Shown piece by piece: positions 14 to 32,647 of a stretch of 64,000 nucleotides of DNA; the stretch's first letter is position 1, and each line of letters begins with the position of its first letter. A program made the position numbers and the translations under genes. This stretch comes from a virus (lineage: Duplodnaviria; Heunggongvirae; Uroviricota; Caudoviricetes): IMG/VR virus record IMGVR_UViG_3300035659_000002. One strand, written 5' to 3'. The notes below the pieces were generated by a model. The model searched no databases and was not told where the DNA came from. It saw nothing but the letters and a program-made list of their open reading frames with translations.

Positions 14-448
14 TTATTCATCTCCCTTAATTTTTCCGCAGCCATCGCAATCAGGACATTGGCTTTTTTTCGTTATTTTTCCGGTTCGATTTTTCACGGC
101 CATGCTTTGTATTCCTGACCCTCCACAGGTCGGGCAAGGATCACCCGGTTTCGGTGCCGGGAATTGCATGACAGGAATTTCAACCGTGGTTGGTTTTTTT
201 CTTGGATCAGTTCGAGGGGTGATTTCGCCCGTGTATGGGTCTTGCCACAAATTCCATTTATCCAAAAATTCAATCTTTTTAACTCCTTGAATTATCTCAA
301 TACTCCGTGCCTTTAATTTGTCTGGATATGCGGCCTGGGCGACATTGCCTTTCACGGGAACGATATGACCGGTTTCTGTTTCGATAAACGTCCCGATGAC
401 AAGCCCTTTATTAAGCAATCGCCTTGCAAGGACAAATGTATAGGTCAT
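14..448 (-). CDS. Shared-N-module protein with DnaJ-type CxxCxGxG zinc finger
   Basis: 144 aa. N-terminal MTYTFV...TGxxVPVKG module is shared with five neighbouring genes. C-terminus has PCPTCGGSG and CPDCDGCG repeats. Confidence 0.5.
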   Translation of the reverse strand: MTYTFVLARRLLNKGLVIGTFIETETGHIVPVKGNVAQAAYPDKLKARSIEIIQGVKKIEFLDKWNLWQDPYTGEITPRTDPRKKPTTVEIPVMQFPAPKPGDPCPTCGGSGIQSMAVKNRTGKITKKSQCPDCDGCGKIKGDE

Positions 449-452
449 GGTA

Positions 453-797
453 TCACTTGATATGACGTAGTATTCGACGCATTGAGATTAAAATGTTTTT
501 GTACCTGGGCAACCAACCTACATGCCATTTCCTGATTTTCTCATTCCAAACTTGTTGAAGGAGGTCCAGATCCTTGTTTTTTATCCTCGTGTGTTGAAGA
601 AAACAATATTGGTCCCGAGCAACCTTTATTGCTTTGAATGCTCGCCAATATCGTTCATATTCATCGATCCGTTTTTTTTCTTTATCAGTTATTTCTTTTC
701 TTTTCCGAAGTCTTGCCAATTTGTTTAGGATGTAATGACCTCTTACCTCATTCAATGTTTCAACATATACCAAATCCAAGTCCATGCAAATATCCAT
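453..797 (-). CDS. hypothetical basic protein
   Basis: ORF 453..866; the likely start is an internal Met after the prim-pol stop. Lys/Arg-rich (RLRKRKEITDKEKKRIDEYERYW). Confidence 0.35.
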   Translation of the reverse strand: MDICMDLDLVYVETLNEVRGHYILNKLARLRKRKEITDKEKKRIDEYERYWRAFKAIKVARDQYCFLQHTRIKNKDLDLLQQVWNEKIRKWHVGWLPRYKNILISMRRILRHIK

Positions 798-804
798 GAT
801 CGGT

Positions 805-2361
805 TCACACGTATTGATCAGGATGTGCAAGCACGTAATCAGGATCGGCATGAACATCTGGATCAAAGTTTAATTTTTTGAAATTAATCGGAACACTAGC
901 GAAACAAGAATCCCACCGCAGCGAGAATGGTACAACCACCACCTTGTTCGATGAACTACCTTGCGACCAATCAATTGAAATATATCCTTCTGGTGGATGC
1001 TGCACGCCCGCAACAAACTTCGGTGGTTTTCTAAATGCTGTCGATGCCATGCGGAGATTCAAATCCTCGACCAGGCTTTCGACCATTGATCGTGCTTTAA
1101 CGATATTAAGTTCGATATTTTCCTTGGGTTGATAGAAAACGTGATATCCGGTTTTACCACTAAATACCGTCCATGGATAATATTTATCGAGCATGAGATT
1201 TTCGATAAGCTGCGTTGCCCAAACGGCATCAAGTTTCGGAACATTCACGTCAATATCAAGCATGTAGACTTTTGGATTTTTTGGAACGCGTGTCATGATA
1301 TCCGATATACCGCTGTTTATTTCTTGAAGCTTGGCTATTGGCTCTTCAAGTGCTAATATGGATTCGACACTAGCTATACTTCTAAAAATTGCTTTTTTAG
1401 CATAGGTGATTCCATCCAATTCTTTTGGCTTGTTAATGTTGCGATCAAATTCATGCTCGGAGATGAGCCAAGTATCAATGCGTGTCCCATTAAACCATTT
1501 GATAAAAGATATGATCTGCTTCGAGATAAACGGGTTCGTGTAATATGCCCATCGTGCGGCCTTGTCCCAAACCTTGCATTTCACTTTCCCCCACCGTGAA
1601 TCGAGAGGAACGATTTTTTGTGGAATTGTAGTTTTGGGTTTAATCGCCGGTGTTTTGGTCACGGGTTTCTCTTCTTCACCTAATGTTTCAGCCTGCACGA
1701 GCCAATTCGATGGACCACGACCACCTTTGAAAATCGAAAGCTTTATACCAATATCTATCAATCGAATATTGAAATGATCTTCGTGCCGCGTGACCTTGGC
1801 TTTACCACGTTGCACGACTTCCCAATGTCCAGCTTTTGAAGGTCCGGCCTCGGCAGGAATATCACCACTATCGGATGTTAAAAAACTGATCGGGTGGGCC
1901 GGTTGAAAAAATAAAGGTACTTTTCTATTGATTGGGAAATAAGGAGTCTTTGCCTGGACCATAGCTTTGGTTGCCCCGGCAACAACAAAATCCACGCAGA
2001 ACGGATCAGCACGATCCCCCACGGCAAAATCAAAGTGCGGGCGATTGTTATAATGAACGCGTATAGCATATTCCAGATCACGTTCGATAAAAGGAGGATG
2101 ATTCAATAGATCGAGGCTAGGTGGTCCTTCAGTATAAACATACGGTTTGGAGATTGAAAAATATTTCAATAGGAATGGTTTTGCCTTGGGTGTTGAGAGA
2201 ACGTCGATTTTTTTTGTTGCTAACAATTCTTCGCTCGTTGTTTGAAGTAAAACACCCTTGACAGGAACAAGATCACCGGTTTCTCTATTGACAAAAAATC
2301 CGGTGATCCGGTCACCATGCGTTTCTGTTTTCACGAATGCGTATGTCATGATTTTCCCCAC
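805..2361 (-). CDS. Archaeo-eukaryotic primase/polymerase (prim-pol) with shared N-module
   Basis: 518 aa. Carries YMLDIDVNV (DxD) and FSGKTGYHVFY (sGxGyH) prim-pol motifs. N-terminal MTYAFVKTETHGDRITGFFVNRETGDLVPVKG module. Confidence 0.6.
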   Translation of the reverse strand: MGKIMTYAFVKTETHGDRITGFFVNRETGDLVPVKGVLLQTTSEELLATKKIDVLSTPKAKPFLLKYFSISKPYVYTEGPPSLDLLNHPPFIERDLEYAIRVHYNNRPHFDFAVGDRADPFCVDFVVAGATKAMVQAKTPYFPINRKVPLFFQPAHPISFLTSDSGDIPAEAGPSKAGHWEVVQRGKAKVTRHEDHFNIRLIDIGIKLSIFKGGRGPSNWLVQAETLGEEEKPVTKTPAIKPKTTIPQKIVPLDSRWGKVKCKVWDKAARWAYYTNPFISKQIISFIKWFNGTRIDTWLISEHEFDRNINKPKELDGITYAKKAIFRSIASVESILALEEPIAKLQEINSGISDIMTRVPKNPKVYMLDIDVNVPKLDAVWATQLIENLMLDKYYPWTVFSGKTGYHVFYQPKENIELNIVKARSMVESLVEDLNLRMASTAFRKPPKFVAGVQHPPEGYISIDWSQGSSSNKVVVVPFSLRWDSCFASVPINFKKLNFDPDVHADPDYVLAHPDQYV

Positions 2362-2370
2362 ATGAATATT

Positions 2371-3501
2371 TCAATAAGCATGACTCCTTACTTTTTTAGT
2401 CGTGCCGTCTGGATTAGCATAGATAGTAATATTGTCAATATCGCATTCTTCAACGCTGCCATCGCATTCTTCTGACCAGCTCTTCAAAACCACGGGTTTT
2501 CCGGTACGCTTGGCTTCCTCGAACCTTGATTTTTCTACATCCGCTTTCTTGGCAGCTATCTCCTCTTTTCTTTTCTTCTCCGCTTCGATTATTGGTTTCA
2601 TGTATGCTTCGGCTTGCTCGATTGTAAATTCCTCGCCTAGTACCTTGATAATTTGATCATCAACATGATACCCCCATCCACTGACATAATGAGCAAGGCC
2701 AAGTTTTTCAAGTGCTTTGGCTTCGTCGCCGTGAAGCATCCATCCTGATAAATATTCTCCCTCATAATAATAGGGCTTTATCATCATTCTACTTTGTGTT
2801 GATTGCCGTAATGCTTGCATTTTAGCATCCCAATTTTTGTGTTGGAACTTCAAGCCATCCTCGGCTTGCTCCAAGGTTTCATTCACGATTATGCCGGTTA
2901 TTTCACCAAATTCATTAGCATTTGGAGCGAAAAACTTTGAAAGCCATGACCCATTCCCGCTTATAGCAACACGACCATAAATTCCCGATATGCTTGGTGT
3001 CTTGAACCACCATTCTATCCCGGTAGGATCGGTAACCGGTTTGCGGGCCGAACCATAACGCGACCAAGGATCAAATTCAATAATGGTTCTCATTTCAAAT
3101 ATATTTTGTCTATCCAGAGACAACGGATAATTTAGATAAATGCAATATTCATCGGCCAAGGCCGGGACTTGCTCGACAATTCTAAACACTTTCATTATCA
3201 GTTTGGAACTCGGTAATCCATATTCACTAATCTGTTCTAGTGCCTCGCTTGCAATCCTGTTTCCTATCGGTTTTCGTGAGCTATAGATATATACACCTTC
3301 CACAGGTCTCATTCCTTTCAAATATCGTTCGGCATCCCCACCCTTAACAATTGGAATGCTTTTTGTTGCAAGCATGTTTTCACTTGTTCTTTGAAATAAA
3401 ATGCCTTTGACTGGGACCGGTTTTCCTGTTTCTATGTCGATGAAAAACCCTTTGATTTCCGTTCCTTGTGAACTCGTTTGCACGAATATATATTTGGCCA
3501 T
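2371..3501 (-). CDS. Shared-N-module protein, function unknown
   Basis: 376 aa. N-terminal MAKYIFVQTSSQGTEIKGFFIDIETGKPVPVKG module; the rest is unrecognised. Confidence 0.5.
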   Translation of the reverse strand: MAKYIFVQTSSQGTEIKGFFIDIETGKPVPVKGILFQRTSENMLATKSIPIVKGGDAERYLKGMRPVEGVYIYSSRKPIGNRIASEALEQISEYGLPSSKLIMKVFRIVEQVPALADEYCIYLNYPLSLDRQNIFEMRTIIEFDPWSRYGSARKPVTDPTGIEWWFKTPSISGIYGRVAISGNGSWLSKFFAPNANEFGEITGIIVNETLEQAEDGLKFQHKNWDAKMQALRQSTQSRMMIKPYYYEGEYLSGWMLHGDEAKALEKLGLAHYVSGWGYHVDDQIIKVLGEEFTIEQAEAYMKPIIEAEKKRKEEIAAKKADVEKSRFEEAKRTGKPVVLKSWSEECDGSVEECDIDNITIYANPDGTTKKVRSHAY

Positions 3502-3505
3502 TAAC

Positions 3506-5074
3506 TTATCGCTTTTTTTTATTTGCGTGTTTCTTGGGTTTCTTGTTATACCCCTTGAATGTTTTTACCGAACCATCGGCCATGAAAACGGTGATGTCCT
3601 TGAACCTGTGTGAATATGCTTGATCTTTGCGAATGAAAACAACGGCCTCACCAAGATTCTTAAAGGTCATTGACCCACCCAACGGCATATTAACTTTAAA
3701 CCATGTATCGGTATTGGTCTGGAATTGCTCGATGGTATATTCACCAATTCCTGATCCAATGGTTACTTGTTCAATTCCCGCCTTTGCCCAATTTGGTCGG
3801 TCCTTGCGTTCCGAACCCGCAGCTATACCGAGCAATATACCCAAGTTTTCCTCGGCAGATAATTCGGTGTCTAGATAGCCCCGGTCCCAATCCTCTGGCA
3901 TGTGCGGAATTGAACGTGCCGATGCAGCTTCACGACCATATTGTAATACATTCGCACGTTTCCAATAATCCGTCCACATGCGCGGAAGCTGAATTTTCAA
4001 CAATTCTATTTTCGAGACCTCTGTTTTGATTTTTCCGAGCTTTTGCATGGGCTTGAATCCACCGGTAGCTGGATCATGCACAAGCCCCTTGGCCTTGAAA
4101 AATTCTTGCGCGGCCTTTCCCTTGATCGTGGTAACACTAGTTGCTTTTAATTCCCTTTCACTAGCGGTCCTAACCGTACCACCTTCCATGGGAATAATCT
4201 CGCCGGTGTCTTTTTCGATAAATACGCCGGTAACCAGGCCCGGTCGTGGACTCCCCGTTTTAACGAACTGATAGATCGATCCTGCCGCGGAATTTTGTTT
4301 TAATTTCATTGATGATTGTTTCAATGTTTTCACGGCTGATTTTGGTTTGTTTATAATTTCTTGAGTCTTTAGAGGATTGGGTTCTGTTTTTTCAAAAGAA
4401 TCAATTATGGCTTGTCGAATCTTTGCCCAATCTTTTCTTGGCTTTATGCCTTGGTTTTTTAATTGAATGTTTGCAGCTTTAAACTTCTCATATTCTATTT
4501 TCATTAGCATTTTTAGTCCTGGGTAATTTTTGATATCAACCCCTATAGCATTGGTGAATGTACTTATCAAATTTCCTGTCCCACAATGCGGATCTAATAT
4601 ATACACGTCACCAACAAGTGATTTGAACCATTCCGAAAATTCGGTTGGCTTCTCGCTCACCTTGGCCTTGGTGAATGAATTGACATAATATTTCAAGAAT
4701 ACCGTATCAAATGAAGGGAATTGATAATTTCCCTTGGTGAAAAATAAAATATATTCACAATGCCTTCGAGGGCGAGGATCATCAAGGTTTCCTCCACCGG
4801 CGGTAAATTTATTCCAAATTTGAAATGTGACGAATTTCCATCCTATTACCCTCGCTGTACTAACCAGAGCGGTCATGCCTAAAAAATGGCTGAACGTGAT
4901 CAAGAACGAATCAGTTTTTGTTTGTAAATAGGTTCTTTCCATAAATTGTATCGGATCAAAATATTCCTCACCTAATTGACCTGATAAAGAACCGATATAA
5001 GGCACATCGGTAATGACACCATCAAAAACGGCTGGAAGATCAGTCGTATAATAATTTGCTTTGATAAATTGCAT
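3506..5074 (-). CDS. SAM-dependent methyltransferase (beta-class amino-MTase fold, non-canonical DVPY motif IV) with internal copy of shared module
   Basis: Motif IV-like FDGVITDVPY lies upstream of motif I ILDPHCGTGN (beta order). The C-terminal half contains YQFVKTGSPRPGLVTGVFIEKDTGEIIPMEGG. The ORF track starts at TTG 5101; ATG 5074 is preceded by GGGTGA. Confidence 0.55.
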   Translation of the reverse strand: MQFIKANYYTTDLPAVFDGVITDVPYIGSLSGQLGEEYFDPIQFMERTYLQTKTDSFLITFSHFLGMTALVSTARVIGWKFVTFQIWNKFTAGGGNLDDPRPRRHCEYILFFTKGNYQFPSFDTVFLKYYVNSFTKAKVSEKPTEFSEWFKSLVGDVYILDPHCGTGNLISTFTNAIGVDIKNYPGLKMLMKIEYEKFKAANIQLKNQGIKPRKDWAKIRQAIIDSFEKTEPNPLKTQEIINKPKSAVKTLKQSSMKLKQNSAAGSIYQFVKTGSPRPGLVTGVFIEKDTGEIIPMEGGTVRTASERELKATSVTTIKGKAAQEFFKAKGLVHDPATGGFKPMQKLGKIKTEVSKIELLKIQLPRMWTDYWKRANVLQYGREAASARSIPHMPEDWDRGYLDTELSAEENLGILLGIAAGSERKDRPNWAKAGIEQVTIGSGIGEYTIEQFQTNTDTWFKVNMPLGGSMTFKNLGEAVVFIRKDQAYSHRFKDITVFMADGSVKTFKGYNKKPKKHANKKKR

Positions 5075-5078
5075 AGGG

Positions 5079-5855
5079 TCACCCGGATGCTCGAATACCA
5101 ATTGAATTTGGAAATGCCGTGATCAAGCTTGCTTCTCCCGTTCCCGTTAGATATGGATCTAACACGGCCTTTTCGACAAGTGATTTATTTCTTTTTGCTT
5201 GGCGTAGTTCTTTTGATGGCTTGCGACCACTAACAATTTGTTTGAACATCCATGAAAAATCCTCTTGTTTTTCAAAGTTCCAAACCGTGTGTGTCGTGCC
5301 ATCATCGAATTGAATTTCTGCTTGTGGTTTTGGTTTTCCATACATCGGGCTTTTACTATCTCGCTCTTCATGAATTTGGTCATCGAGAATTTCATCAAAA
5401 AGCGGAAATGAATATTTTCCTTCATATTTGGCTTTTTGATAACCACCCGCACGCGCACCATGTTCTTGTCCAGGTACTACCGTGCCTTTCCACCATGAAA
5501 ATAATTCTTCTTGGTCCGGTGGTATTCGGTTTTTTCCAAAATATAAAATAAATTGAACATCTGCATGATGCATTTGTCCCTTTGCCCAAACTTGTTTTTC
5601 ATATAATATCCATTCCTTTTGCTCGGTAATTTTACCGGCGAGGACCAAATCAGGAACTTCAAATATACTCGTGAATACAATCAGAAAACCATAATCCTTG
5701 GTATCATCAAATGCCTTGGCCATGAACGTGTTAAATCTCGAAGGTTCTAGCGGGCCGGTTGGGCCTGCAGTAATGATCCCGTCGAATTGACCTTTTTCAA
5801 AAACCTTTTCCTGATAATCGCCGCGCAATATTTTCATGAATATTATTGCCCCCAT
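5079..5855 (-). CDS. Methyltransferase paralog with degenerate catalytic motif
   Basis: 258 aa. FDGIITAGPT aligns to FDGVITDVPY of the neighbouring gene (DVPY -> AGPT). Motif I LDPYLTGTGEAS is conserved. Confidence 0.5.
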   Translation of the reverse strand: MGAIIFMKILRGDYQEKVFEKGQFDGIITAGPTGPLEPSRFNTFMAKAFDDTKDYGFLIVFTSIFEVPDLVLAGKITEQKEWILYEKQVWAKGQMHHADVQFILYFGKNRIPPDQEELFSWWKGTVVPGQEHGARAGGYQKAKYEGKYSFPLFDEILDDQIHEERDSKSPMYGKPKPQAEIQFDDGTTHTVWNFEKQEDFSWMFKQIVSGRKPSKELRQAKRNKSLVEKAVLDPYLTGTGEASLITAFPNSIGIRASG

Positions 5856-8167
5856 GGATCAATGATCGTGCCATCTTTCAACATTACCTTGAATACATCC
5901 TTGACGTTCTTGGCCCAGGATATTACATAATGCTTTTCGGCTTGATATAACAACATTCGACGGAAAAAGTGCATTCCCAGATACATCAGGGAATAGAAAC
6001 CCGGCGTGGGAATACCACCCATGGCTTCATTAATTGCTTGTGTGAACTCCATGCGTGGCACGTCCATGCCATCCAGGATGTCCACGATGATACAATGCGT
6101 TCGCCGAAAATCGGTTGATTCACCTAGATGCAATCGCATTGCCCGTCCAATCCGCTGATACGTCCGCGTGAATGATTTACCACCTTGTAGCACTATGCAA
6201 AGCATTAATTCATTTATATCGAGGCCCTCACCGACCATGCCGGTCGTGCCGATCAGGACGTGAGTTTTTTTCATGGCAACATCCTTGAATACCATATCCC
6301 TGGTTCGCACGTTCGGATCTTTGCTTTTAACATCGGTAATGATTTCAACCCGTGGACCGGCTACAGCTTCATTTTCCTCTTCTTCAATTTCTGTTTCCTC
6401 GCCAGGATCTTCCTTGGAAGCAACCATTTCAACCTTGAAAGGATACTCGCCATGCTTTGGGATATTCATTTTATCGAGCATCATTTTCAATTGAACGCCT
6501 TGCTCGATTTTTTCAACAACAATAAGCGTGGGCATTGCTCGCTTGTATCCTTCAACACAAATATCTGCGACGAGTTTGTTTCGTGCTTTGTTTAGTGCTA
6601 TGAATGCCTCGATGAATGATGGATAACGATTAGGCATCCGCGTGAGAATTTCTCCTCGTTGCGCTGCTCGTGTTTCTGCTCGCTCGACCGCCGCTGCATA
6701 TATTTTATTGAATAATGGAATAAGGTCATCAGCAATGGGATTCGCAATTAGCTTAATAATTGGTTGCGATAGATATTGATTGCCGTCCTCATATTCAATT
6801 AGCTTCGATGCCGGGAGGTCATAAAGAATATCACCAAGTTTTTCCCTGACTTCCAATGTTTCTTTTGGAGTATCAGCAAACGGGGTTGCACTCAATCCAT
6901 ACCGAAAACTTGCAGGGTTCGCCCTGGCTGCCGCAGCATAGGTTGTCGCCTTGACATGGTGGGCCTCATCAAACACGAGAACGTTAGCTTCTTTCATGAA
7001 GTCGAAAAATATTTTTTTCTGGGTTTCAAATCGTTTCTTTGCTACCGGGTCATTGGATTTTCTTCGACCACTAACCCCGAGCATCATTTCGACGCTATTG
7101 ATCACGGCCACGTTCACATCTAGCTGTCCCGGCGTGTTTGGTATCATTTCAATCTCCGGCTCACCAGGATCTGGTTTCTCGCCGTAGAGGATACCAACAT
7201 GTGGAAAACCACGTTCCCTAAAACGGTCTCGTGTTTGCTTTGCCAGGTTTTTGTTAGGCACGATAAACAAAGCATCCTCACCTAATTTTCCGATCAAGCC
7301 AATACCAATCTCCGTTTTACCTGATCCCGTGGCAAGGCGAAGAATCCCGTTCTTGCGTTTAAGTGCAGCTTCGATGGCCCTGTGTTGATAATCCCGGAAC
7401 TTGAATGGTCGGCCTTTTTTATCGGGATGACCTTCTATCTCGATAAAATTATTAGCAATCTTTTTTCGTTGGTCATCAATCACGACTCGATATTTTTGTG
7501 AAATGAGATGGTCAGCACAATAATACAACAACCCAATATCAGCCATGGCGAGCGATGGTTTTCCCCCAGGACATTTAATCGTTTTTCCATTGATGACCAC
7601 CATGCTCTTGTCATGTTCCTTATCCAAATTCAATTTTCTCAAACAAACAGGACATTGCCAAAACACAAAATATGCTTGATAGTGTTTTGCCCGTTTTCCA
7701 ACACCGGCTATTACATCAGCTTCAGCATACCGCCTTAAGACGCTGTATGCGTTATGGAGATATTGCTCGTTTTCACATCCGAACGTGAAAATATTTTCAC
7801 GATTCTTCACACGGAATATTATTGGTGGAGCGTTCGATGCTTCTTCGGTCGGTGCTGACGGGACATATTCGGGAATGTCAGGTTTGGACGTTGGAACGAA
7901 TCTATCATCGCCCGGTTCCCAATATACCAATTCATGGCTTTCGGACCATTGAAAACCCTCCATGGCAAAGAGCTTCATGAAATTGGGTGTATTCTCTCGG
8001 GAGTATTTATAAAATTCATCGAACCCAGGAATCATGAGATATGGATCTGTTTTGTGTAGAATTTTGTCACGCGTGATACCGGTGTTATCAGTAACCATCC
8101 GGTGCTTATTCGGAGGCATTTTTTTCATTATTTCTTTTAACTGATCAAGCGTTTGAATTTTTGCCAT
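5843..8167 (-). CDS. Superfamily-2 DEAH-box DNA helicase
   Basis: Walker A LATGSGKT, VLVFDEAHH, motif VI QRIGRAMR. N-terminal ~300 aa has a CPVC...CPGG zinc ribbon. Start ATG 8167 is preceded by AGAGGT. Confidence 0.7.
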   Translation of the reverse strand: MAKIQTLDQLKEIMKKMPPNKHRMVTDNTGITRDKILHKTDPYLMIPGFDEFYKYSRENTPNFMKLFAMEGFQWSESHELVYWEPGDDRFVPTSKPDIPEYVPSAPTEEASNAPPIIFRVKNRENIFTFGCENEQYLHNAYSVLRRYAEADVIAGVGKRAKHYQAYFVFWQCPVCLRKLNLDKEHDKSMVVINGKTIKCPGGKPSLAMADIGLLYYCADHLISQKYRVVIDDQRKKIANNFIEIEGHPDKKGRPFKFRDYQHRAIEAALKRKNGILRLATGSGKTEIGIGLIGKLGEDALFIVPNKNLAKQTRDRFRERGFPHVGILYGEKPDPGEPEIEMIPNTPGQLDVNVAVINSVEMMLGVSGRRKSNDPVAKKRFETQKKIFFDFMKEANVLVFDEAHHVKATTYAAAARANPASFRYGLSATPFADTPKETLEVREKLGDILYDLPASKLIEYEDGNQYLSQPIIKLIANPIADDLIPLFNKIYAAAVERAETRAAQRGEILTRMPNRYPSFIEAFIALNKARNKLVADICVEGYKRAMPTLIVVEKIEQGVQLKMMLDKMNIPKHGEYPFKVEMVASKEDPGEETEIEEEENEAVAGPRVEIITDVKSKDPNVRTRDMVFKDVAMKKTHVLIGTTGMVGEGLDINELMLCIVLQGGKSFTRTYQRIGRAMRLHLGESTDFRRTHCIIVDILDGMDVPRMEFTQAINEAMGGIPTPGFYSLMYLGMHFFRRMLLYQAEKHYVISWAKNVKDVFKVMLKDGTIIDPWGQ

Positions 8168-8174
8168 GAGTGAT

Positions 8175-8627
8175 TTACCTCTTGCTTTTTTTACATGCGT
8201 TGAATACCACGAATGCTTTTGGCGATCCGACGAGCTGTTCAATGAACCGTGGCTGCGGCAATGGAGCTGGCACCGGCGAAGGACCGGGAATCGAAGCAAT
8301 CGAAGGAACGGGTTGTCTTGCCTTTAACTTGGCTCTTGCCTTGGCCATGCGTTCCTCCGGGGTAGGGGCATAAGGTTCGACTTTAATAGCTCTTGGCAAG
8401 GGTTGGTTTTCAGCTTCCCATATTTCTCGAGGGATACTTGTAATGAAGGGTTTAGCATCTGGACCTTTAATAAGTCCTACTCTACGTTGTGCTAGCATTT
8501 GTTCTTCGGTTATATTAAATACACGATTCTTGACGGGAACATATTTCCCCGTTTCTGCATTCACGAAGAACCCGACAAGCTGTTTGTTTTCCATTTCCCG
8601 TGTTACAATAAACACGAATGATGGCAT
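8175..8627 (-). CDS. Shared-N-module protein with Pro-rich tail
   Basis: 150 aa. MPSFVFIVTREMENKQLVGFFVNAETGKYVPVK module, then a PVPSIASIPGPSPVPAPLPQP stretch. Confidence 0.5.
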   Translation of the reverse strand: MPSFVFIVTREMENKQLVGFFVNAETGKYVPVKNRVFNITEEQMLAQRRVGLIKGPDAKPFITSIPREIWEAENQPLPRAIKVEPYAPTPEERMAKARAKLKARQPVPSIASIPGPSPVPAPLPQPRFIEQLVGSPKAFVVFNACKKSKR

Positions 8628-8634
8628 GTTCTTT

Positions 8635-9126
8635 TCAACCTCTCATGTATGATAGTGGTGGATCTTGATCAGGATCAGCACCGGGTTGGCTGTACCACGC
8701 GATGCGTTTTTTGATAAATGCATTTGCTCGAAGTATTGTATCAGCACTAACATTGCCTTCAAGTGCTTTTTGTTCGTTATCTTGAATTATTTTCATGTAC
8801 CTTTCAATTTTAGCAACACGACGTTGTTCTTTAGCTTGGATGCTTTGATCTTCCCGCTTCGCAACGCGCCGGGGCTTGGTTGTCTTGGCAGTCGTTGATG
8901 TTTGTGTTTTTGGCTTGCGAGGTTTTGATATAATGCCCTGCGCTTCGAGATATGGCCTCGATGCTTCTCGTGGGAGAACCTTGATCATTTTTATTGCTAA
9001 TAATTCCTTGCTCGTGGTTTGAAGCAATTTACCCTTTATGGGGACCGCTTGGCCGGTTTGAAGATCGACAAAGAACCCGGTGATTGTCTCACCTTGCTTT
9101 CCTGTTTTCACGAATGCATAGATCAT
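8635..9126 (-). CDS. Shared-N-module protein with basic tail
   Basis: 163 aa. MIYAFVKTGKQGETITGFFVDLQTGQAVPIKG module, then a Lys/Arg-rich region. Confidence 0.5.
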   Translation of the reverse strand: MIYAFVKTGKQGETITGFFVDLQTGQAVPIKGKLLQTTSKELLAIKMIKVLPREASRPYLEAQGIISKPRKPKTQTSTTAKTTKPRRVAKREDQSIQAKEQRRVAKIERYMKIIQDNEQKALEGNVSADTILRANAFIKKRIAWYSQPGADPDQDPPLSYMRG

Positions 9127-10183: not shown

Positions 10184-10690
10184 TCAGGATTCCAATCGTT
10201 GAACGTCATAACCCTTGCGATTGGCAATGCTCACGAGTTCTTGATAAATTGACGGTGTGACCTCGCCCCTGGCAAGAATCCACAAATATCTTTTGCTACT
10301 ACTACCAACGATAGCATACTGATAATTCTGGTCAACGAACTCGATAATATAATCAGCCTTGGGTTGTAACCAAAAAAATTGCACGAGCAACGTGTTTTTT
10401 TTGTCAGAGGGAAATGCTTTACCCATTTGAATTTTCCGCGTGCCATCGGATCGCGTACCTGCATTCTTTACCTCGATATAACCGTCCATCATCGTGTATT
10501 CTGCTGTGACCTTGGATAATCCACGTTGAAACCATGCAGGAAACGCGGCCACTTGATGCCATACTTTTTCACGTTTGTTTAATCCGGTGCCAATATAGTT
10601 ATCGAGATTGATAGATTGCACTTTAACAAGTGCAGAATTAGATTTGTTTGGTCGTGCTTTACCAACCGTCCAAATATTAATCCCTGGCAT
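10184..10690 (-). CDS. Lipocalin-family protein (bacterial Blc-like)
   Basis: C-terminal YQYAIVGSSSKRYLWILARGEVTPSIYQELVSIANRKGYDV resembles the Blc/lipocalin_2 signature (DYxYAlVGxPdRxYLWILSRtP...GfD). Confidence 0.5.
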   Translation of the reverse strand: MPGINIWTVGKARPNKSNSALVKVQSINLDNYIGTGLNKREKVWHQVAAFPAWFQRGLSKVTAEYTMMDGYIEVKNAGTRSDGTRKIQMGKAFPSDKKNTLLVQFFWLQPKADYIIEFVDQNYQYAIVGSSSKRYLWILARGEVTPSIYQELVSIANRKGYDVQRLES

Positions 10691-10991: not shown

Positions 10992-12308
10992 TTAGTCAGG
11001 ACGGGTAAATAAAAGCCAATTTGGGCCTATATAGGTCAATGCACAAAGCCCCGTGGCTGATATGGTTAAAACATTTGCGTCCGCGCTAGCCGTGCTAGGA
11101 TCATTCATTCCCATTGACACGGTAATTACTTGAGGAACATCGGTTACATATACATCATAAGCGGTTAATCCGTTAAACATGAAAATTGCCATTGCCGTTG
11201 GAAAAGATGTAACTGAAAATGAAACGGTTGATAGAACACATGTGAATCCCGGCATTGCATTGGACCAATATATTAATACATCGTTTTCATTAGGAGGGTT
11301 TGGTGAAACGGGAAAATTCACAACCACGTTGACACCATCTGATCCTATCATGAAATCCTCGCCAATGGCAGCCACGGAATAAGAATACTCTCCCGAACTT
11401 TGAATCGTGTCGGTATAAGAAATCACATTACCTAACGATGCAAGTAATACCGCTCCCTCGGAATTGCTTGCACGATATACCTCGTAAGATGTCGCTCCCG
11501 GTGTTGCCGTCCATTGAAGATAGAAAATTCCATTCGTTGATGTTACAGGAGAAACCGTTAATTGTGGCTGCTTCGGTATCACGTTCACGGTGACGACATT
11601 GGATATCGGGCTGTCGCCACCGAGGTTGTAAATTGCCACGGCATAATAATACGTGCCTGGGATAACCATGTCCCATGAATTGTATATGTTAGGTTGATCA
11701 ATATTATAAATCAATTGTGCTTCCGATGCTTTCGAGAAAAACATGGTCGAGCGGTAGACCCGCGTTTGTAATGAAGGATCTGCCGTCCAGGATAGTAGAA
11801 TGATGGAATCTGTTTGCGAGTACGGGAGTTCATTTAGAAACGGAGCAGCTGGAGGATATATCGTTACTATGCCTCCTATATCAATACTACCGGGGATGGT
11901 AACGGTAACAGAAACCAAGTTTGAGAATGGGCTTTCTCCTATCGTGTTACTCACGGTCACAGCATAATAATACAAGCCATTTTTCGTGATCGTGTCCTTG
12001 TATTGATTTGCTATCACGTTATCTAAATATCCAATTAATTCAGCTTGAGATTTATCGGTGAACTCGACGTTTGATCGATAAACACTTGCAATCGTTGTGG
12101 GGGCTGCTTGCCATGTTAAAAAGATTATTCCTGTTTCTGACGTGAACGGTAGATTATCAAGGGTCGGCGCATTAGGCAATCGATCTTGAATGATATTATC
12201 CGGTGGAGTTATCACTTCAGCTTTTGGCCAAAGCACGACGGTTAAACTCGCCCCTGCAATCAATCCGATAATCACGAGAACATATATTAATCCTTTTTTC
12301 ATGATCAT
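10992..12308 (-). CDS. Membrane-anchored FN3-repeat protein (paralog A)
   Basis: N-terminal TM helix. Repeated FN3 signatures (LTWQAAP...VYRS, YYYAVTVSNTIGESPFSN, FYLQWTATPGATSYEVYRA). Conserved C-terminus TISATGLCALTYIGPNW. Confidence 0.6.
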   Translation of the reverse strand: MIMKKGLIYVLVIIGLIAGASLTVVLWPKAEVITPPDNIIQDRLPNAPTLDNLPFTSETGIIFLTWQAAPTTIASVYRSNVEFTDKSQAELIGYLDNVIANQYKDTITKNGLYYYAVTVSNTIGESPFSNLVSVTVTIPGSIDIGGIVTIYPPAAPFLNELPYSQTDSIILLSWTADPSLQTRVYRSTMFFSKASEAQLIYNIDQPNIYNSWDMVIPGTYYYAVAIYNLGGDSPISNVVTVNVIPKQPQLTVSPVTSTNGIFYLQWTATPGATSYEVYRASNSEGAVLLASLGNVISYTDTIQSSGEYSYSVAAIGEDFMIGSDGVNVVVNFPVSPNPPNENDVLIYWSNAMPGFTCVLSTVSFSVTSFPTAMAIFMFNGLTAYDVYVTDVPQVITVSMGMNDPSTASADANVLTISATGLCALTYIGPNWLLFTRPD

Positions 12309-12416
12309 GATCTTGATTAAACAATTGAATATTAAATGAATGAACCGCTATACCAATATAAAAATCTTTTCTCCCAATTATACAGATTAAATGATAAATA
12401 AAAAAAGAATTGTTGA

Positions 12417-13538
12417 TTAGATGCTAATTTTGAGAACTTCAGCCGTCATTAGGTCTTTGAAATTAGGTGAAACGCCTTGAACGGTCATATACCATGCATT
12501 CTTAACACTTGATTTAAACAACCAACAAATACCGTCGTTCAAGTTAATCCCTCCAGCCATGTGCCATCCGTTGGTCGCCACGAATACACAACCCGTTCCA
12601 TCGGCAAGATATAATGATGTCGTTATACCGAGCTTGATTCTTAAATCATCATCGGATAGCTTTACCCTAAACGCGGAAGGGCTTGTATATTGGGTCGTTA
12701 TCGTGTAATCAGGTTGGACAGCTAATGTACCATCATAAATCAATGCGGGATACCACATTGATGCATCAATGGATTGAACTCGATCCGTTGGTGTAAGAAT
12801 GAATGCGGCCAAATTCACGACGACAGATGCAACATTAGACATGGCACTTGCCCCCGCATCGTCTAGTGCAACCACGGCATAATAAAATTCTCCTGAAATG
12901 AGGAATTGAGTAGTTATGTATAACCCTTGGCCTACCGTCAGCGTCATTAAAAGAGATGCACTAACAACGTCCGTGAAAAATACATCAGAACGATAAATCT
13001 TGTAGCTCGTTGCTTCGGGAGATTCCGTCCATGCAATCTTGACCGTTCCATCCGTCGATGTTTGAGGGGTTATCGTCACGAATGGTGGTGTCACGGTTGC
13101 CATGCCTACCGGGGGCTTGCTCACGGTCACGGAGACCACGTTCGATAAGTCGCTATCTCCTATCGCATTGCTCACGACCACGCCGTAATAATACATGCCA
13201 TCATCGGCAACCGTATCCGTGTAGGTAAATGCTTGCACGTTCGGATCATTCAAGGTTGCGATCAATGTCGCTTGCGACGCGGCCGAGAACTCGGCACTAG
13301 CACGAAAGACCTTTGTTGATAAAGATGGTTCAGCTTGCCAATTCAATTCGATGACACCGGATGTAGAAGTCATCAGAATAGTGTTTAATGTCGGAGGGTT
13401 TGGTACTCGGTCTTGAACGATGTTATCCCGTTGCGTTGTTGGCTTCGGGAGAAACGCTAGGGTTAACCCGATAGCAGCTCCCACCGCGATCAAGATCAAG
13501 ATGAACGCAATTCCTTTTCTACCTAATTTGAGATTCAT
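12417..13538 (-). CDS. Membrane-anchored FN3-repeat protein (paralog B)
   Basis: TM anchor followed by ELNWQAEPSLSTKVFRAS, YYYGVVVSNAIGDSDLSN, VKIAWTESPEATSYKIYRSD. Confidence 0.6.
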   Translation of the reverse strand: MNLKLGRKGIAFILILIAVGAAIGLTLAFLPKPTTQRDNIVQDRVPNPPTLNTILMTSTSGVIELNWQAEPSLSTKVFRASAEFSAASQATLIATLNDPNVQAFTYTDTVADDGMYYYGVVVSNAIGDSDLSNVVSVTVSKPPVGMATVTPPFVTITPQTSTDGTVKIAWTESPEATSYKIYRSDVFFTDVVSASLLMTLTVGQGLYITTQFLISGEFYYAVVALDDAGASAMSNVASVVVNLAAFILTPTDRVQSIDASMWYPALIYDGTLAVQPDYTITTQYTSPSAFRVKLSDDDLRIKLGITTSLYLADGTGCVFVATNGWHMAGGINLNDGICWLFKSSVKNAWYMTVQGVSPNFKDLMTAEVLKISI

Positions 13539-13641
13539 GATAACATGCCTTTTTGATTCATTTGAATAATGTGTAAAGAACCCGTCTTGCCGATATAAAT
13601 GGTTTTCCCTGGGTTATAGGAAAATAAAAGAAAAAAAGAAT

Positions 13642-14706
13642 TTAACCACCAGGACGAACATACAGATACCAATTCGGGCCGATGAATGTCAAAGCACAAA
13701 GCCCATTGGCAGAAATTGTATAAACACCGGATTGGGTACATGCCTTGTAATTAATTAATTCCACGCCTGTTTCCATCACTCCTTTAACATCATAATCAGT
13801 TATTTGATATATCTTTAACTCGCCCAATATTCCGAGCATCGACGGGGAGCTAAATGATGACAAGGAAAACGAAATAGCTGATTGACTAAATGCTATATAG
13901 CTTTGGATTTTGAGTTGCCAATATGCTATGACATCGGAAACAGGAACATTAATCACCACGTTGTTGTTCCAAGTATTTGAGATGGCACTTTGCGTACCTT
14001 CACTATTAATGGCAACCACGATATAATAATAAACCCCCGGAAAATTAATCTGGTCGGTATATCTAAACAAAGGAGCTGGAATGCCTGGAGAAAAATCATC
14101 TCCCTCTGAAACTGCGCTACTCAATATTGATGTGAGGAATGCGGCATCAGCAAAAGTATGAATATAATTGTCCGAACGGTACACGTCATAACGAACCGCT
14201 TGTGGTGATTTGGTCCAAGCGATATGCACGATTCCATCCGTCGAAGTCGCAGGGGTTACTAGAACAGCAACCGGAGCTATTGCCACATACGGGAATGTCA
14301 CGGTTACACTTACCACATTTGAAAGGCCGGTAGTATCAGCATAGGTTCTCACGCCAATGGCATAGAAATATATACCATCAACCGAAACTATATCCGTGTA
14401 TGTATAATGCCCCGGTTCAACAAATGCTGCAATTATCGCTGCTCCTGATTGAGTCGTGAACTCGTGATTTGAACGGTAGATCCATGTACCTGGGACTTCC
14501 TCGCTTTGCCATGTTAGGGTAATAATACCTGTTTCCGATGACGGGGATAAATTGTCCAAGGTAACAATATAGTTTTGTTCGATATGATCTGGTGGATTTA
14601 TCGTTTCTGTTTTTGGAAGTAATGCCATCGTGATACCGATAGCTGCCACTATAGCAATAACCACGAGAATGAATGCTTTTCCTTTTCTTGATATTTGGAT
14701 GGTCAT
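13642..14706 (-). CDS. Membrane-anchored FN3-repeat protein (paralog C)
   Basis: Real start MTIQISRKGKAFILVV at 14706 by alignment with paralog B. IYFYAIGVRTYADTTGLSN, YYYIVVAINSEGTQSAISN; C-terminus TISANGLCALTFIGPNW. Confidence 0.55.
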   Translation of the reverse strand: MTIQISRKGKAFILVVIAIVAAIGITMALLPKTETINPPDHIEQNYIVTLDNLSPSSETGIITLTWQSEEVPGTWIYRSNHEFTTQSGAAIIAAFVEPGHYTYTDIVSVDGIYFYAIGVRTYADTTGLSNVVSVTVTFPYVAIAPVAVLVTPATSTDGIVHIAWTKSPQAVRYDVYRSDNYIHTFADAAFLTSILSSAVSEGDDFSPGIPAPLFRYTDQINFPGVYYYIVVAINSEGTQSAISNTWNNNVVINVPVSDVIAYWQLKIQSYIAFSQSAISFSLSSFSSPSMLGILGELKIYQITDYDVKGVMETGVELINYKACTQSGVYTISANGLCALTFIGPNWYLYVRPGG

Positions 14707-14836
14707 GATAATATACCTTTTCGATTCACTATAATAATGTGTGAATACCCCGTCTTGCCCATATAAATGGTTTTCTCCAAAAACCACGTAATCTTCTTAT
14801 ATGCCTTGAAAATATGTTATGGCGAGGTGAATCAAT

Positions 14837-17242: not shown

Positions 17243-18214
17243 ATGCCCGCACGACCACCAACCATTAGGCCCGCATCACGTCCGGCCTTCCGGCCCCCCG
17301 TGAGCCATTCGACCCCGCCGAGCATCAGGCCCTCGACACCCCCACCATCTTTCAGGCCGCCGGTTCATCATGACAATCCACCGTCCCGGCCTCCACCCCC
17401 GCCGACGGTAATCCACCGGCCATCAATCCCGCCGATTGTTACCACTGCGATCATCATCAATTCGATGACACATCAAGATCCACCCGTGCATCAAAGCGAA
17501 CCCGTGCATCAAGATGAACCCTTGCATGAATCGGACGACTTCAAGGAAACAGCATACGAGCAACCATTACCACCTCCGTCCAAGTGTTGCCGGTATTGTG
17601 GCGAGGCGATCACGTCAGGAGACATTTGCCCGAAATGTAAATTAACACACGATGAACAGAAGTACCCGAATGATGATGTTATAGATCGGGATTATGACGA
17701 TGACCATGATCAAGAAAAGTCAAAATACATGCATCATCTTGCATCCCCAAATTATTTTCACGAATCTAAATCACGTTACCTGTGTCATCGAGGAATGTCC
17801 AATGAAAAGAAAATGATGTATGCCATTGCCATAGCGGTCGGACTTCTCATGCCGATAGCATTCGTTTACATGATGCCATACTTGTTATACATGCCTTCAA
17901 CCGTGGCCTACAAGCATGGACCATTCCAGGTGAACTCCCTTCATTTCGTGGACGGGAACGATGGCACGGAATATGCGGGGGTTGAATATTTTGAACTTTA
18001 TGTCTCCAATAATTCCGAACGATATGATGAATATAATTTCATCACCAACGGAACGGGTTCAGTTTCCCAGGTTCTTGCCGCTCTTGCAAGCATTCCTGAA
18101 TCGGAGTATTATTTACAAGTCGTTCTATATTCCGATGGCTATGCTCCTTACGGCGATAGCTGGGACATCATTACCACCGGCAATAATTGGATCTATCTTT
18201 ATCCCATTCCATGA
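17243..18214 (+). CDS. Pro-rich single-pass membrane protein with zinc ribbon
   Basis: RPPTIRPASRPAFRPP... low-complexity Pro tract, CCRYCGE...CPKCK, TM segment. The ectodomain is similar to the 15321..16439 product. Confidence 0.5.
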   Translation: MPARPPTIRPASRPAFRPPVSHSTPPSIRPSTPPPSFRPPVHHDNPPSRPPPPPTVIHRPSIPPIVTTAIIINSMTHQDPPVHQSEPVHQDEPLHESDDFKETAYEQPLPPPSKCCRYCGEAITSGDICPKCKLTHDEQKYPNDDVIDRDYDDDHDQEKSKYMHHLASPNYFHESKSRYLCHRGMSNEKKMMYAIAIAVGLLMPIAFVYMMPYLLYMPSTVAYKHGPFQVNSLHFVDGNDGTEYAGVEYFELYVSNNSERYDEYNFITNGTGSVSQVLAALASIPESEYYLQVVLYSDGYAPYGDSWDIITTGNNWIYLYPIP

Positions 18215-18232
18215 AAACCGAAGTGAATGAAC

Positions 18233-18406
18233 ATGGCACGAAAGAAAGAGAAACGAGTATATCTCACTCCCATGGGAAAGATCGTCGCAATGGGCGAAAT
18301 ATCATTACGAATGCGGGAGACCGGCAAGACCGCTCAACAAGTAATGGACGACAATGAACGAGAAATACAAAAGAAAATGGAGAACGATGATCATGAAAGG
18401 AAATGA
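18233..18406 (+). CDS. small hypothetical protein (57 aa)
   Basis: Manual ORF MARKKEKRVYLTPMGKIVAMGEISLRMRETGK...; below the track cut-off. Confidence 0.2.
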   Translation: MARKKEKRVYLTPMGKIVAMGEISLRMRETGKTAQQVMDDNEREIQKKMENDDHERK

Positions 18407-18548
18407 CGTGATACTCTGGATTGGAACGATCTGCTTGTGTATCAATATTATCTTTATATTATTGGATGGCATGAATGTTATCAATACCATCGGAGTAATA
18501 TCGGGCATCCTTTGTGTTGTCTCTGCATTATCAGAACAGATCGATTGA
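18354..18548 (+). CDS. small membrane protein
   Basis: 64 aa, hydrophobic. Confidence 0.3.
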   Translation: MNEKYKRKWRTMIMKGNDVILWIGTICLCINIIFILLDGMNVINTIGVISGILCVVSALSEQID

Positions 18549-18627
18549 TTGTCTTGTTTCTTTTTTTTTTCAACAAGCCATGTTATCACCTTACCTTGTT
18601 TTAGGCAAACGGGCTTTTTTTTATCGG

Positions 18628-18647
18628 TTTAACAAAATGATTTAAAT
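18628..18647 (+). promoter_or_regulatory. conserved promoter-like motif TTTAACAAAATGATTTAAAT
   Basis: The TATA-like box lies ~25 nt upstream of ATG 18668. Confidence 0.45.
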
Positions 18648-18667
18648 TTTTGGTAAAGGTATAAAGT

Positions 18668-19003
18668 ATGATTATTATGCCTGTAGATACATCAAACCTT
18701 TCAAAAACTGAAAAACAATACGCTGCTCCTACCCTGGTTATTATTCACGATAAGAATGTTCCTATCGAAGTAATGCGTGGCCTTCTATTCTTCTTTGAAG
18801 GAAAAATTAATTGTAATAAAGACAAAGATGAGATACGTCGGGAGCTACGTAGGTATTTGAAATATGAAGGCAATACCGAGAAATTGGTTGATGCCATCAA
18901 GAAAACCATATTGGGAGAACCTGAATCCAATCAGAACATTAGTTCGGAATCAATGTTGGATTCAAATCCTGTTATTGGAAAAATAATTGATTCCCATGAT
19001 TAG
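18668..19003 (+). CDS. hypothetical protein
   Basis: 111-aa ORF immediately after the promoter motif. Confidence 0.45.
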   Translation: MIIMPVDTSNLSKTEKQYAAPTLVIIHDKNVPIEVMRGLLFFFEGKINCNKDKDEIRRELRRYLKYEGNTEKLVDAIKKTILGEPESNQNISSESMLDSNPVIGKIIDSHD

Positions 19004-20872
19004 TATTTTTTAATTCCATTTTTTCTTTTGATTATCTTATCAAGTTACCTTCTTTTGACCAATTGGGCTTTTTTTGTTGAAGATAACCGGTTTGTTACAA
19101 CCTGATTACTTCGTGCATCCAAACCGGTATATTATAAATTTTGACTATAGCGGTCCCCGCACCTCTCGAGTTGATCCTTCTGCCGATTTTTAGCCCACCT
19201 TTTCTTGGTTAATGATTACATTAAATACATTTGTAAAGGCATGAGGTTTTTTATGATCTTGTTTTTTATCTATCAAATGCTTAAAATATCCTTTGATTTT
19301 AAATCCCTAACTTCTCAAACCTATCATTTTATCATGTATCCATGATACTTTTCATATATAAATGAAACCAAATTGATATATTTTCGAGTAATGGTGATAA
19401 ACCTTTGAATCAAAAATATATACCAAAAAGGCAAACCGGGCTTTATATTTGATTGAAATTTTGACTTTCCCTCCTTGGTTCTCGAGCGTTCTACACCAAT
19501 TATAATAGGTCAATCATTGATTATATCCACGTTTAGATTAGTTAAATGTCATCTAGCATAGGGTTTAATCAATGGGATACAAACAAAGCATTTTTATACC
19601 ATGTATTATCAAGTTATCATTTTTGATGAAAACGGGCTTTTTTTGACCAATTATGAAAAAGTAATCAAGTTACCTATCTCCGAGAAAACGGGCTTTTTTT
19701 GGCTTTTTTTCAATTTTATCAATCCACGCTCCTGGCACGTGTATCCTGAATGCTCGACATGGCCTATTTTGCCTTTTTTAGTATTATCAAGTTACCTCTA
19801 TCATAAAATGCCCTTTTTTTTGAAAATAGGCGTTTTTAGGCATTTTGACGTGTTTTTGCCCATTTTGACCATGTTTTAGGTGTCGAAAACGTGCCTTTTT
19901 GACCTATTTTGACCTATTGTTTGACCCATTTTCGAGCATGAAAATGGCGTGTTTTTGGCTTTTTTTGCATCATTTTTGACCGGCAGCTGCGACGATTTTC
20001 GAGGCCTGAACGACTAAAAATTCACCCGTTTTTGCATCATTCGACCACGATCCAAGCCCTGATTCATCGGTAAAAACACCTTTTTTTGACCTTTTTTTGC
20101 CCATGAAAATACCATTTTCGACCATTTTTCGTGCATTTTTGGTCTCGGGATGTTTTTCGATGGTTGGTGACCGGATTGACTATCCGGGCTTTTTTTTCGG
20201 AATGATGGCTTTTTTTTCGGGGATCCGGGGCAACCGTGGCTCGAATTGGCCATTTTCCCGATCCTAGCTACTCGGGATCTTGCAAGGTCGATTATCGGGA
20301 TTCAATCAATTCCCACCTTTTTTTCCAACGTATATCATCAAGTTATCCCCTCTTGATAAAGGACGTATTTTTTAGAAAAGGATGGAATAATCGTGGAGAA
20401 CAGGGTGTATTCTGGAGGGTATCGGATGGAATCGGATGGAGATGAAGAGCAAGTTTTTTTGGAAACGTGCGGGGAAGGAGATAGAGTATAACTTGATGAC
20501 ATGCGGCAATCCCACTTTTTTTTTGCATGATCGAAAAGTAACTATCCCGACAAAATCAACCAAGGCTTCTAACGACGAACCGCAACACGCCCACGGAATG
20601 CCGAGATAGGCGTTCCCGTTGAAAATAACGGCTCCGTCTTGGACCCTGAATGGACAATGGAAATAGATGTCATGGGCGAGGTCCAGGGAATAACTTCAAA
20701 TATCGATCATGGTACTTTACTATTGCGAATCATCTCGACTCACATCAAACTCGCGCATCCTACAAGGTTCGTTGTTTTCAGTCATTTTCGTTTTTTCTCC
20801 ATGGTGTTTCACCGGGATAGGGAGAGGGGTCACCCTCCCCTTCCCAAATTTTTTTTAGATGCGGGCGAGTAA

Positions 20873-32541: not shown

Positions 32542-32554
32542 AGATGAAAAATGA

Positions 32555-32642: not shown

Positions 32643-32647
32643 AATAA

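Follow-up and report, generated by a model that had tools for sequence, protein, structure and literature searches.

A small module shared by tandem viral genes with otherwise unrelated products: a candidate docking domain

Dockerins are modules of about 60-70 residues that are joined by linkers to many unrelated, often clustered enzymes and bring them onto one platform; they are usually C-terminal, contain two calcium-binding repeats and are extracellular. The capsid-targeting sequence of phage T4 is a short (10-20-residue), unfolded N-terminal peptide that is cut by the prohead protease at a consensus site. Here we analyze a stretch of 64,000 nucleotides (hereafter the window) from the Caudoviricetes record IMGVR_UViG_3300035659_000002, in which six genes, referred to as g1 to g6 in order of position, encode proteins that share a small module. 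We tentatively propose that this module, about 64 residues long, folds independently and serves as a docking domain specific to the lineage. A further point of comparison is provided by polyvalent proteins, which carry 2-15 effector domains per polypeptide and are predicted or were shown to be packaged and delivered with DNA (Iyer et al., 2017; PMC5512222).

As in dockerin systems, one small module is present on many otherwise unrelated proteins of one gene cluster. However, Pfam shows no family over the module region, and, unlike in cohesin-dockerin systems, no scaffold with repeated receptors was found; the sole nearby repeat proteins (10992-14787) have an apparent N-terminal membrane anchor. 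With polyvalent proteins and P1 Dar the locus shares a repertoire of DNA methyltransferase, superfamily 2 (SF2) helicase, primase-type and LPD1 components, and with polyvalent proteins it shares the deployment of many DNA-directed activities together. In contrast to polyvalent proteins, the array proteins are encoded by separate genes that share a tag, each consists of the module and at most one or two recognizable domains, and the array showed no association with head, portal or MuF genes. None of the polyvalent signature domains (LPD1-40, MuF, DarA-N, DdrB-ParB) was detected in the window proteins, and LPD1 occurs only in a protein of a relative (P0014). The T4 signal and the trafficking domains of polymorphic toxins (MuF, LXG) also feature a constant N-terminus followed by a variable C-terminal cargo, sometimes in several genes, but the module is a predicted folded domain of 64 residues without a conserved cleavage motif, and its cargos are DNA-metabolism proteins of 80-520 residues rather than toxins. 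The module could not be placed in any of the families considered; by analogy, it most plausibly works like a dockerin or a trafficking domain. The domain family is new; placing a single tag on many cargos is a known principle. To our knowledge, one tag on a battery of viral DNA enzymes at such copy number is undescribed, and a literature search returned nothing similar to a tag shared by viral DNA enzymes.

The module and the extent of its array

The original prediction described a module of about 60 amino acids common to six minus-strand genes between positions 14 and 9126, located at the N-terminus in five of them and internally in the methyltransferase gene g4. Translation of the DNA confirmed the coordinates of the six modules (Table 1) and this arrangement, with a measured length of about 64 residues. 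For two of the genes, the open reading frame extends beyond the probable start: g2 spans 805-2361 and probably starts at M5 (ATG at 2349), which yields a product of 514 residues that matches public gene calls, and g4 spans 3506-5101 with a likely start at 5074, which yields 522 residues. To prevent circular statistics, we used a leave-one-out design in which profiles built from five copies were searched against all six-frame fragments of the window (1,180 in total). In each case, the copy left out ranked sixth, with E-values of 2.7e-13 to 6.7e-23, and the best non-module fragment had an E-value of at least 0.035, which indicates that the similarity survives alignment statistics. Searches with a single copy (phmmer) retrieved all five other copies at E-values of 1e-18 to 0.014. 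Pairwise amino-acid identity among the copies is 25-58%; F5, G17, F19, T24, G25, P29 and L43 are invariant in all six copies of the window, for which the consensus given previously (M-YAFVKT---G--ITGFFV--ETG--VPVKG...) is accurate. A profile scan revealed no seventh copy within the window, and a weak profile match to an antisense fragment (2251-2472, E 0.01-0.2) was taken as noise.

All six predicted copies are therefore present, but six is an undercount, because the window cuts the array at the g1 stop codon. Identical genes are present on public contigs (L001, L007, L020) that extend the array past window position 1, and a family-profile scan of the overlapping contigs showed that the same genome carries the module in 14 of 18 consecutive co-directional genes over approximately 21 kb. 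The order of the array is g6, g5, the SF2 helicase, a 258-residue protein, g4, g3, g2, a 132-residue protein, g1 and a 505-residue methyltransferase-like protein with a DPPY motif seen by eye, followed by eight module genes with products of 581, 336, 532, 179, 504/508, 477, 272/275 and 361 residues; the helicase and the 258-, 132- and 505-residue proteins are the members without the module. By exact-sequence look-up, from which g6 was left out, g1 to g5 and all eight products encoded outside the window were located on one contig of 137,329 bp.

The module was also found in related viruses and on other proteins there, which the original prediction had proposed as a check. A relative represented by a 12.7-kb contig (L004) contains at least five module copies in the same order (lipocalin, module genes, helicase, ..., zinc-finger protein), and its helicase is approximately 52% identical to that of the window. 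Module genes flank the SF2 helicase in L004 as well as in the window, where this had been noted previously. Within the same contig, L004:8376-8558 encodes a protein of 60 residues that consists of the module alone, with no cargo. A second relative (L009, 4.9 kb) contains at least three copies, one of which is attached to an LPD1-domain protein (P0014, LPD1 E-value 8.8e-17). In a distant relative (L015:3-9413), one module with a 13-residue insertion is found on a lysine-rich protein of 394 residues (P0035). Neighboring genes in L015 encode a PKD-repeat protein of more than 1,386 residues and a protein of 900 residues, both of which have a membrane anchor at the C-terminus and contain many N-x-S/T sequons, features reminiscent of archaeal surface proteins.

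Comparison of these contigs shows that the module comes and goes independently of its cargo and is swappable, as expected of an adaptor. In L014, the orthologue of the g2 prim-pol occurs without the module; in L004, the methyltransferase part of g4 is encoded on its own, by a gene for 269 residues; and P0012 consists of the module and the C-terminal domain of g4 (matching g4 residues 253-423) without the methyltransferase. Furthermore, P0024 is a g1-like protein fused to the methyltransferase that is encoded here by the next gene downstream, which suggests that module proteins work physically with methyltransferases. The stretch that follows the module is not conserved and is rich in proline and lysine in several copies, and the 45 residues after the module contain neither a common motif nor a conserved cleavage motif. 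A constant folded domain, a non-conserved stretch and a variable, swappable cargo, repeated fourteen times in one block, constitute a docking or trafficking architecture.

We also considered whether the module lacks a shared function and is a by-product of tandem duplication and 3' replacement, kept as a folding, solubility or translation-start cassette. In line with such an origin, the array genes are tandem, co-directional and closely packed, with several gaps of just 4-9 nucleotides, and the module copies of L004 cluster by genome in a neighbor-joining tree. Identical amino acids shared between copies use the same codon in 141 of 318 cases, compared to 116 expected from codon usage, and this near-saturation of synonymous sites indicates that the copies are old and have been kept by selection on protein sequence; it also rules out an RNA- or DNA-level cause of the repeat. 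The exception is the pair of g2 and g6 modules, which share 25 of 35 codons where 12 are expected, a level that suggests recent duplication, gene conversion or exchange and that would fit the by-product explanation. Against it, however, are the maintenance of the protein sequence despite saturated synonymous sites, the persistence of the module across relatives with differing cargos and its movement between cargos, and the internal (g4, P0012) and stand-alone copies, which a translation-start cassette leaves unexplained. We therefore regard the absence of a shared function as highly improbable. In the same tree, the g1-, g4-, g5- and 581-residue-type modules cluster by orthologue across viruses.

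Fold, distribution and resemblance to propeller blades

The confidence of the fold, for which structure prediction of the module alone had been proposed as a check, was assessed with AlphaFold2 (AF2). The resulting model has a pLDDT of 86 (85.5 and 86.1 from two alignments, with the same secondary structure) and depicts a small, beta-rich, compact monomer, in which a beta-hairpin and short strands are followed by a beta-alpha-beta-alpha segment with two helices. This predicted fold and the stand-alone copy in L004 together point to a genuine autonomous domain. Readings of the module as a signal peptide (its first strand appears insufficiently hydrophobic by eye) and, prompted by peptidase genes downstream of the array, as a ubiquitin-like domain (the order of strands and helices is not that of a beta-grasp) or a leader peptide (large proteins rather than short core peptides are attached as cargos) were rejected. 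Across 33 distinct copies, the conserved columns are F5, G17, F19, L43, other hydrophobic positions and a D/E/N21-x-x-T24-G25 turn, and no basic or catalytic residue is conserved. Conservation of a core plus one turn would suit a domain that binds or scaffolds better than an enzyme or a binder of the phosphate backbone.

These properties bear on whether the module directly binds nucleic acid, i.e., whether it is a beta-rich DNA or RNA binder that tethers enzymes to viral DNA and possibly recognizes the modified DNA of the virus. All identifiable cargos act on DNA, and 10 of the 12 modules measured are mildly basic, with net charges of +1 to +6. The AF2 model has no significant structural neighbor, and its weak neighbors include nucleic-acid-binding small barrels and Cas12 subdomains. 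However, none of the known DNA-binding folds is significantly matched by the module, two copies have a net charge of zero or below (m336, 0; m581, -2), and the 33 copies have no conserved basic or aromatic surface residue. Direct binding is weakened in particular by the lack of a conserved basic residue, and we consider it quite unlikely.

Consistent with the original prediction, which had not recognized a named domain, no match over the module was found in Pfam, PHROGs, NCBIfam, PADLOC or PDB sequences; the profile search of PDB sequences returned nothing below an E-value of 0.025, and its best matches, eS25 and RimM, are not significant. When 1.84 billion cluster representatives were searched exhaustively with the module profile, 43 proteins were retrieved; approximately 24 of these are true family members, i.e., proteins of 89-574 residues, all from related metagenomic contigs, with one full-length match each that is nearly always N-terminal; the remaining matches are repeat proteins. 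The size of the family is thus approximately 24 clusters among 15 billion proteins. A word-indexed search of 5.8 billion proteins returned no family member with the six copies as query and two with 25 copies. Using tblastn with three different copies, the family was not found in 50,697 deposited phage genomes; the sole match (Tenacibaculum phage PTm1, E 0.8) was dropped, as the family profile does not match that locus. The first 10 kb of the window had no megablast match among deposited phages, neither the module nor the helicase had a relative in IMG/VR, GTDB genomes contained no relative of the module, and JGI metagenomes contained three short contigs of the same virus. These searches make the module a clean case of a protein family that is either very young or very restricted.

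The repeat proteins from the exhaustive search are mostly lactonase-type seven-bladed propellers (PF10282, E 1e-30 to 1e-50). The module profile matches four to seven stretches per PF10282 protein. In each blade, the second to fourth strands (B-C-D) correspond to residues 3-38 of the module, and the strands of the AF2 model coincide with the positions of the blade strands. The pattern common to module and blades is aromatic-x-F-V ... G-F/Y-x-I/V-D-x-x-T-G-x-L/V-x-P-V. Comparison of the module with the blades by hhalign gave a probability of 96% (P 6e-9, 39 columns) for blades that had been pre-selected by the module profile, and a blade profile retrieved all six copies of the window and nothing else. 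Scores per blade are only 3-18 bits and individually insignificant, and the small E-values represent the sum over near-identical repeats. The Pfam Lactonase model did not match the six module proteins at E <= 0.1 (hmmscan). In addition, unrelated repeat proteins (the tail-fibre-like P0028 and P0038, as well as P0037 and P0039) share the h-D-x-x-T-G-x-x-h-P-V hairpin, which makes convergence a live possibility. Given the low scores per blade, the pre-selection of blades, the lack of a Lactonase match and the hairpin in unrelated repeats, homology to blades is not established. The module may derive from a single propeller blade, with the similarity falling short of proven homology, and single blades are known to be reused (PMC3797127, PMC6805158, PMC9218822). 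Such an origin would bear on how new domains arise from ancestral peptides.

The resemblance to blades raises a further explanation, in which modules pair by their edge strands into a hetero-oligomeric ring or stack that forms a hub with a different enzyme on each subunit, comparable to the blades of a beta-propeller or to the paralogous Sm/LSm proteins. Such a hub, with up to 14 separately encoded blade-like subunits, would be a multi-enzyme machine for DNA replication and modification, i.e., a non-covalent "polyvalent protein", and a natural ring or stack of single-blade-like paralogues bearing different enzymes. Oligomers assembled from single blades have been documented (PMC6805158, PMC9218822). 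The alignment with lactonase-type blades and the reciprocal profile matches described above would be consistent with self-assembly, as would the weak resemblance to small barrels, the existence of a cargo-less module and the limitation of conservation to core residues, which is expected if the backbone makes the contacts. However, the blade scores are weak, with statistics inflated by the choice of blades through the module profile, and the lack of a match by the Lactonase model also argues against this explanation. Lactonase propellers consist of 6-8 tandem four-stranded blades that close a ring, whereas each module protein has one blade-like unit, and in the module the fourth strand of the blade is replaced by the beta-alpha-beta-alpha extension, so that the AF2 model is a compact monomer with two helices and not a four-stranded meander. 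A fixed ring is also not suggested by the copy number, which varies (at least five in L004, at least three in L009 and 14 here). The window was also searched for an incomplete propeller to which a blade could be added, and none was found. We consider assembly of modules into such a hub very unlikely.

Cargo proteins and candidate functions

With the module masked, an all-versus-all BLASTP comparison of the array proteins returned no match at E <= 0.01, which indicates that the cargos are unrelated at that sensitivity, as previously claimed. The labels that the original prediction had assigned to cargos (DnaJ zinc finger, prim-pol, methyltransferase) are correct, but the domain scores behind them are weak. 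The g1 cargo matches Pfam DnaJ CXXCXGXG (PF00684) at an E-value of 2.7e-6, under the curated cut-off, and contains the two CxxCxGxG motifs of the DnaJ type (CPTCGGSG at residue 105 and CPDCDGCG at residue 131). The C-terminal cargo of g2 matches LigD_Prim-Pol (E 8.8e-5; 22.6 bits, below the cut-off of 27.4) and features DIDV at residue 365 (DxD) and SGKTGYH at residue 397 (sGxGxH), which weakly supports its assignment as an archaeo-eukaryotic primase-type prim-pol; the L014 orthologue bears a precomputed LigD_Prim-Pol match. In g4, an N6_N4_Mtase match (E 0.009) in the N-terminal part is followed by the module and a C-terminal domain of approximately 190 residues. The C-terminus of g3 matches solely PHROG 33472, which is of unknown function, and the g3 cargo has no match among PDB sequences. 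The tail of g5, a gene located directly upstream of the helicase here and in L001, L004 and L005, is rich in proline and has a conserved C-terminal motif; that of g6 is basic, and an orthologue (P0019) is 49% identical to g6 along its full length.

Two of the products encoded outside the window also carry recognizable domains. The 504/508-residue protein (L007:3618-5144) has a C-terminal BRCT domain of the LigA type (NCBIfam E 6e-7), and the 361-residue protein carries DUF5591, a domain of archaeosine synthase-type (ArcS-like) enzymes. The window encodes an NAD-dependent DNA ligase (29504-31195, minus strand) with adenylation, OB, zinc-finger and HhH domains and no BRCT match; together, this ligase and the BRCT domain on a module protein outside the window may represent a split ligase. 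Among the proteins without the module, the helicase has a likely start at M45, which yields 774 residues, as in the gene calls of public assemblies, and it carries an N-terminal extension of ~250 residues. The 258-residue protein has no direct BLASTP match to g4. A 254-residue orthologue in L004 matches the 258-residue protein at 58% identity and the N-terminus of g4 at 30%, so a methyltransferase-like kinship of the two would be only indirect, through the shared L004 orthologue.

We consider it possible, and tentatively prefer as an explanation, that the module is a docking domain that concentrates its cargo proteins on a common intracellular platform, most likely replication or modification machinery. 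Each module would bind the same site on this platform, which most likely would be the replication and DNA-modification machinery of the virus around the SF2 helicase within the array. Tagged enzymes would be concentrated on newly made viral DNA, which would amount to a multi-enzyme "polyvalent" protein in non-covalent form. Docking is favored because the identifiable cargos and neighbors are DNA-related, the helicase is conserved inside the array, and the BRCT protein appears to complement the BRCT-less ligase. We infer that the partner of the module is a protein rather than DNA, that it is shared and that it belongs to the replisome.

Several observations weigh against docking. No function is assignable to seven cargos (g3 and those of the 581-, 336-, 532-, 179-, 477- and 272-residue proteins), and "DNA enzymes" therefore describes just the identifiable minority. 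Identity between orthologues is 25-74% for the module and 36-62% for the cargo; the module is no more conserved than its cargo, although higher conservation might be expected for a strictly shared binding site, and no conserved surface-exposed polar residue marks a common interface. In L015, the P0035 module gene has membrane and PKD-repeat genes as neighbors, and a helicase is absent within 10 kb. Finally, the LPD1 cargo in one relative points towards packaging, as this domain is characteristic of proteins whose delivery with DNA is predicted (PMC5512222).

The last point concerns an alternative in which the module is a tag for virion packaging or injection, which docks its cargo inside the procapsid (on scaffold, portal or shell) so that the protein is packaged and injected with the DNA, similar to the capsid-targeting sequence of T4 or the Dar system of P1. 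The packaged set would consist of anti-restriction and early-replication proteins, with many tagged proteins instead of one polyvalent protein. A constant N-terminal domain with variable cargo is the architecture of known trafficking tags, and the methyltransferases, the prim-pol, the adjacent SF2 helicase and the LPD1 domain in P0014 overlap with the polyvalent-protein repertoire (PMC5512222). The basic-tailed g6 and P0035 could be DNA-associated internal proteins, and the array directly follows, on the same strand, Ig/FN3-like genes of which one is tail-protein-like (PHROG 7440, E 6e-7). However, 64 folded residues far exceed the 10-20 residues of the T4 signal, no conserved cleavage motif follows the module, and neither the surroundings of the array nor the rest of the window yielded a recognizable capsid, portal or terminase gene. 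A set of fourteen different proteins would be unusually large for packaging, and both the BRCT protein that appears to complement the BRCT-less ligase and the ArcS-like enzyme look like intracellular factors for replication or modification. We consider packaging unlikely, and the DNA-related cargos and neighbors favor recruitment over packaging only mildly.

Should the module prove to be a docking tag, the lineage of this virus would have its own way to organize proteins for replication, methylation and hypermodification, an alternative to the use of giant polyvalent proteins by other phages. One small domain would serve many cargos in a dockerin-like manner, but inside the cell and on DNA enzymes. 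Pull-down with the module would then offer a handle on the hub of an otherwise unannotatable replication system, and the module itself would represent a portable 64-residue tag for co-localizing enzymes.

Genome context and neighboring genes

The element appears to be a large virus from sediment-type metagenomes. Past the last module gene, contig L020 of the same genome (L020:4902-13743) encodes a 543-residue glutaredoxin-domain protein with a JAMM-like H-x-H...S-x-x-D motif seen by eye, a 754-residue protein with a C39-like peptidase domain, a DUF362 protein and a PAPS-reductase-type protein. From its sequences, this gene set just downstream of the array looks like a DNA-modification cluster, and its peptidases could in principle process the tagged proteins. 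Beyond the array, the window is rich in DNA methyltransferase and HNH endonuclease genes; these and other features are listed together with the module copies in Table 1.

Table 1. Positions of the module copies and of other features in the window (aa, amino acids)
Feature	Coordinates	Strand	Details
Module in g1	251..448	-	Residues 1-66 of 144-aa product; gene 14-448
Module in g2	2158..2349	-	Residues 1-64 of 514-aa product; gene 805-2349
Module in g3	3307..3498	-	Residues 2-65 of 376-aa product; gene 2371-3501
Module in g4	4085..4279	-	Internal, residues 266-330 of 522-aa product; gene 3506-5074
258-aa protein without module	5079..5855	-	No Pfam match
SF2 (ResIII/DEAD) helicase without module	5843..8167	-	Pfam ResIII E 1.7e-22; PHROG 16 E 3e-56
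Module in g5	8430..8624	-	Residues 2-66 of 150-aa product; gene 8175-8627
Module in g6	8935..9126	-	Residues 1-64 of 163-aa product; gene 8635-9126
Lipocalin_2, bacterial-type	10184-10690	-	E 3e-27; directly upstream of array; same position in L004, 60% identity
Three tandem paralogues (438, 373, 381 aa)	10992-14787	-	Ig/FN3-like repeats
RNA-ligase-like gene	26057-26644		
SPFH/Band 7 gene	31512-32483		
Four tRNA genes (Ser-GCT, Leu-TAA, Leu-CAA, Leu-AAG)	32553-33059	-	
DNA methyltransferase	38055-38780		
HNH endonuclease	42882-43703		
DNA methyltransferase	49982-51421		
Nucleoside 2-deoxyribosyltransferase-like gene	56082-56756		
HNH endonuclease	58296-59192		

Within the Ig/FN3-like group, the 438-residue product begins with a hydrophobic segment that resembles a membrane anchor, one protein of L004 matches all three paralogues, and one paralogue matches a tail-protein PHROG solely through its Ig-like part.

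Between positions 1 and 17500 of the window, most genes lack a Shine-Dalgarno sequence, many start codons are in A/T-rich or '..C ATG' contexts, and neither sigma-70 promoters nor intrinsic terminators are enriched over shuffled sequences, which suggests that the expression signals of the host may be atypical, e.g., Bacteroidota-like or archaeal. Low G+C content (0.35, compared to approximately 0.42 elsewhere) was observed at 18001-20000 and 22001-24000, around the strand switch to plus-strand genes.

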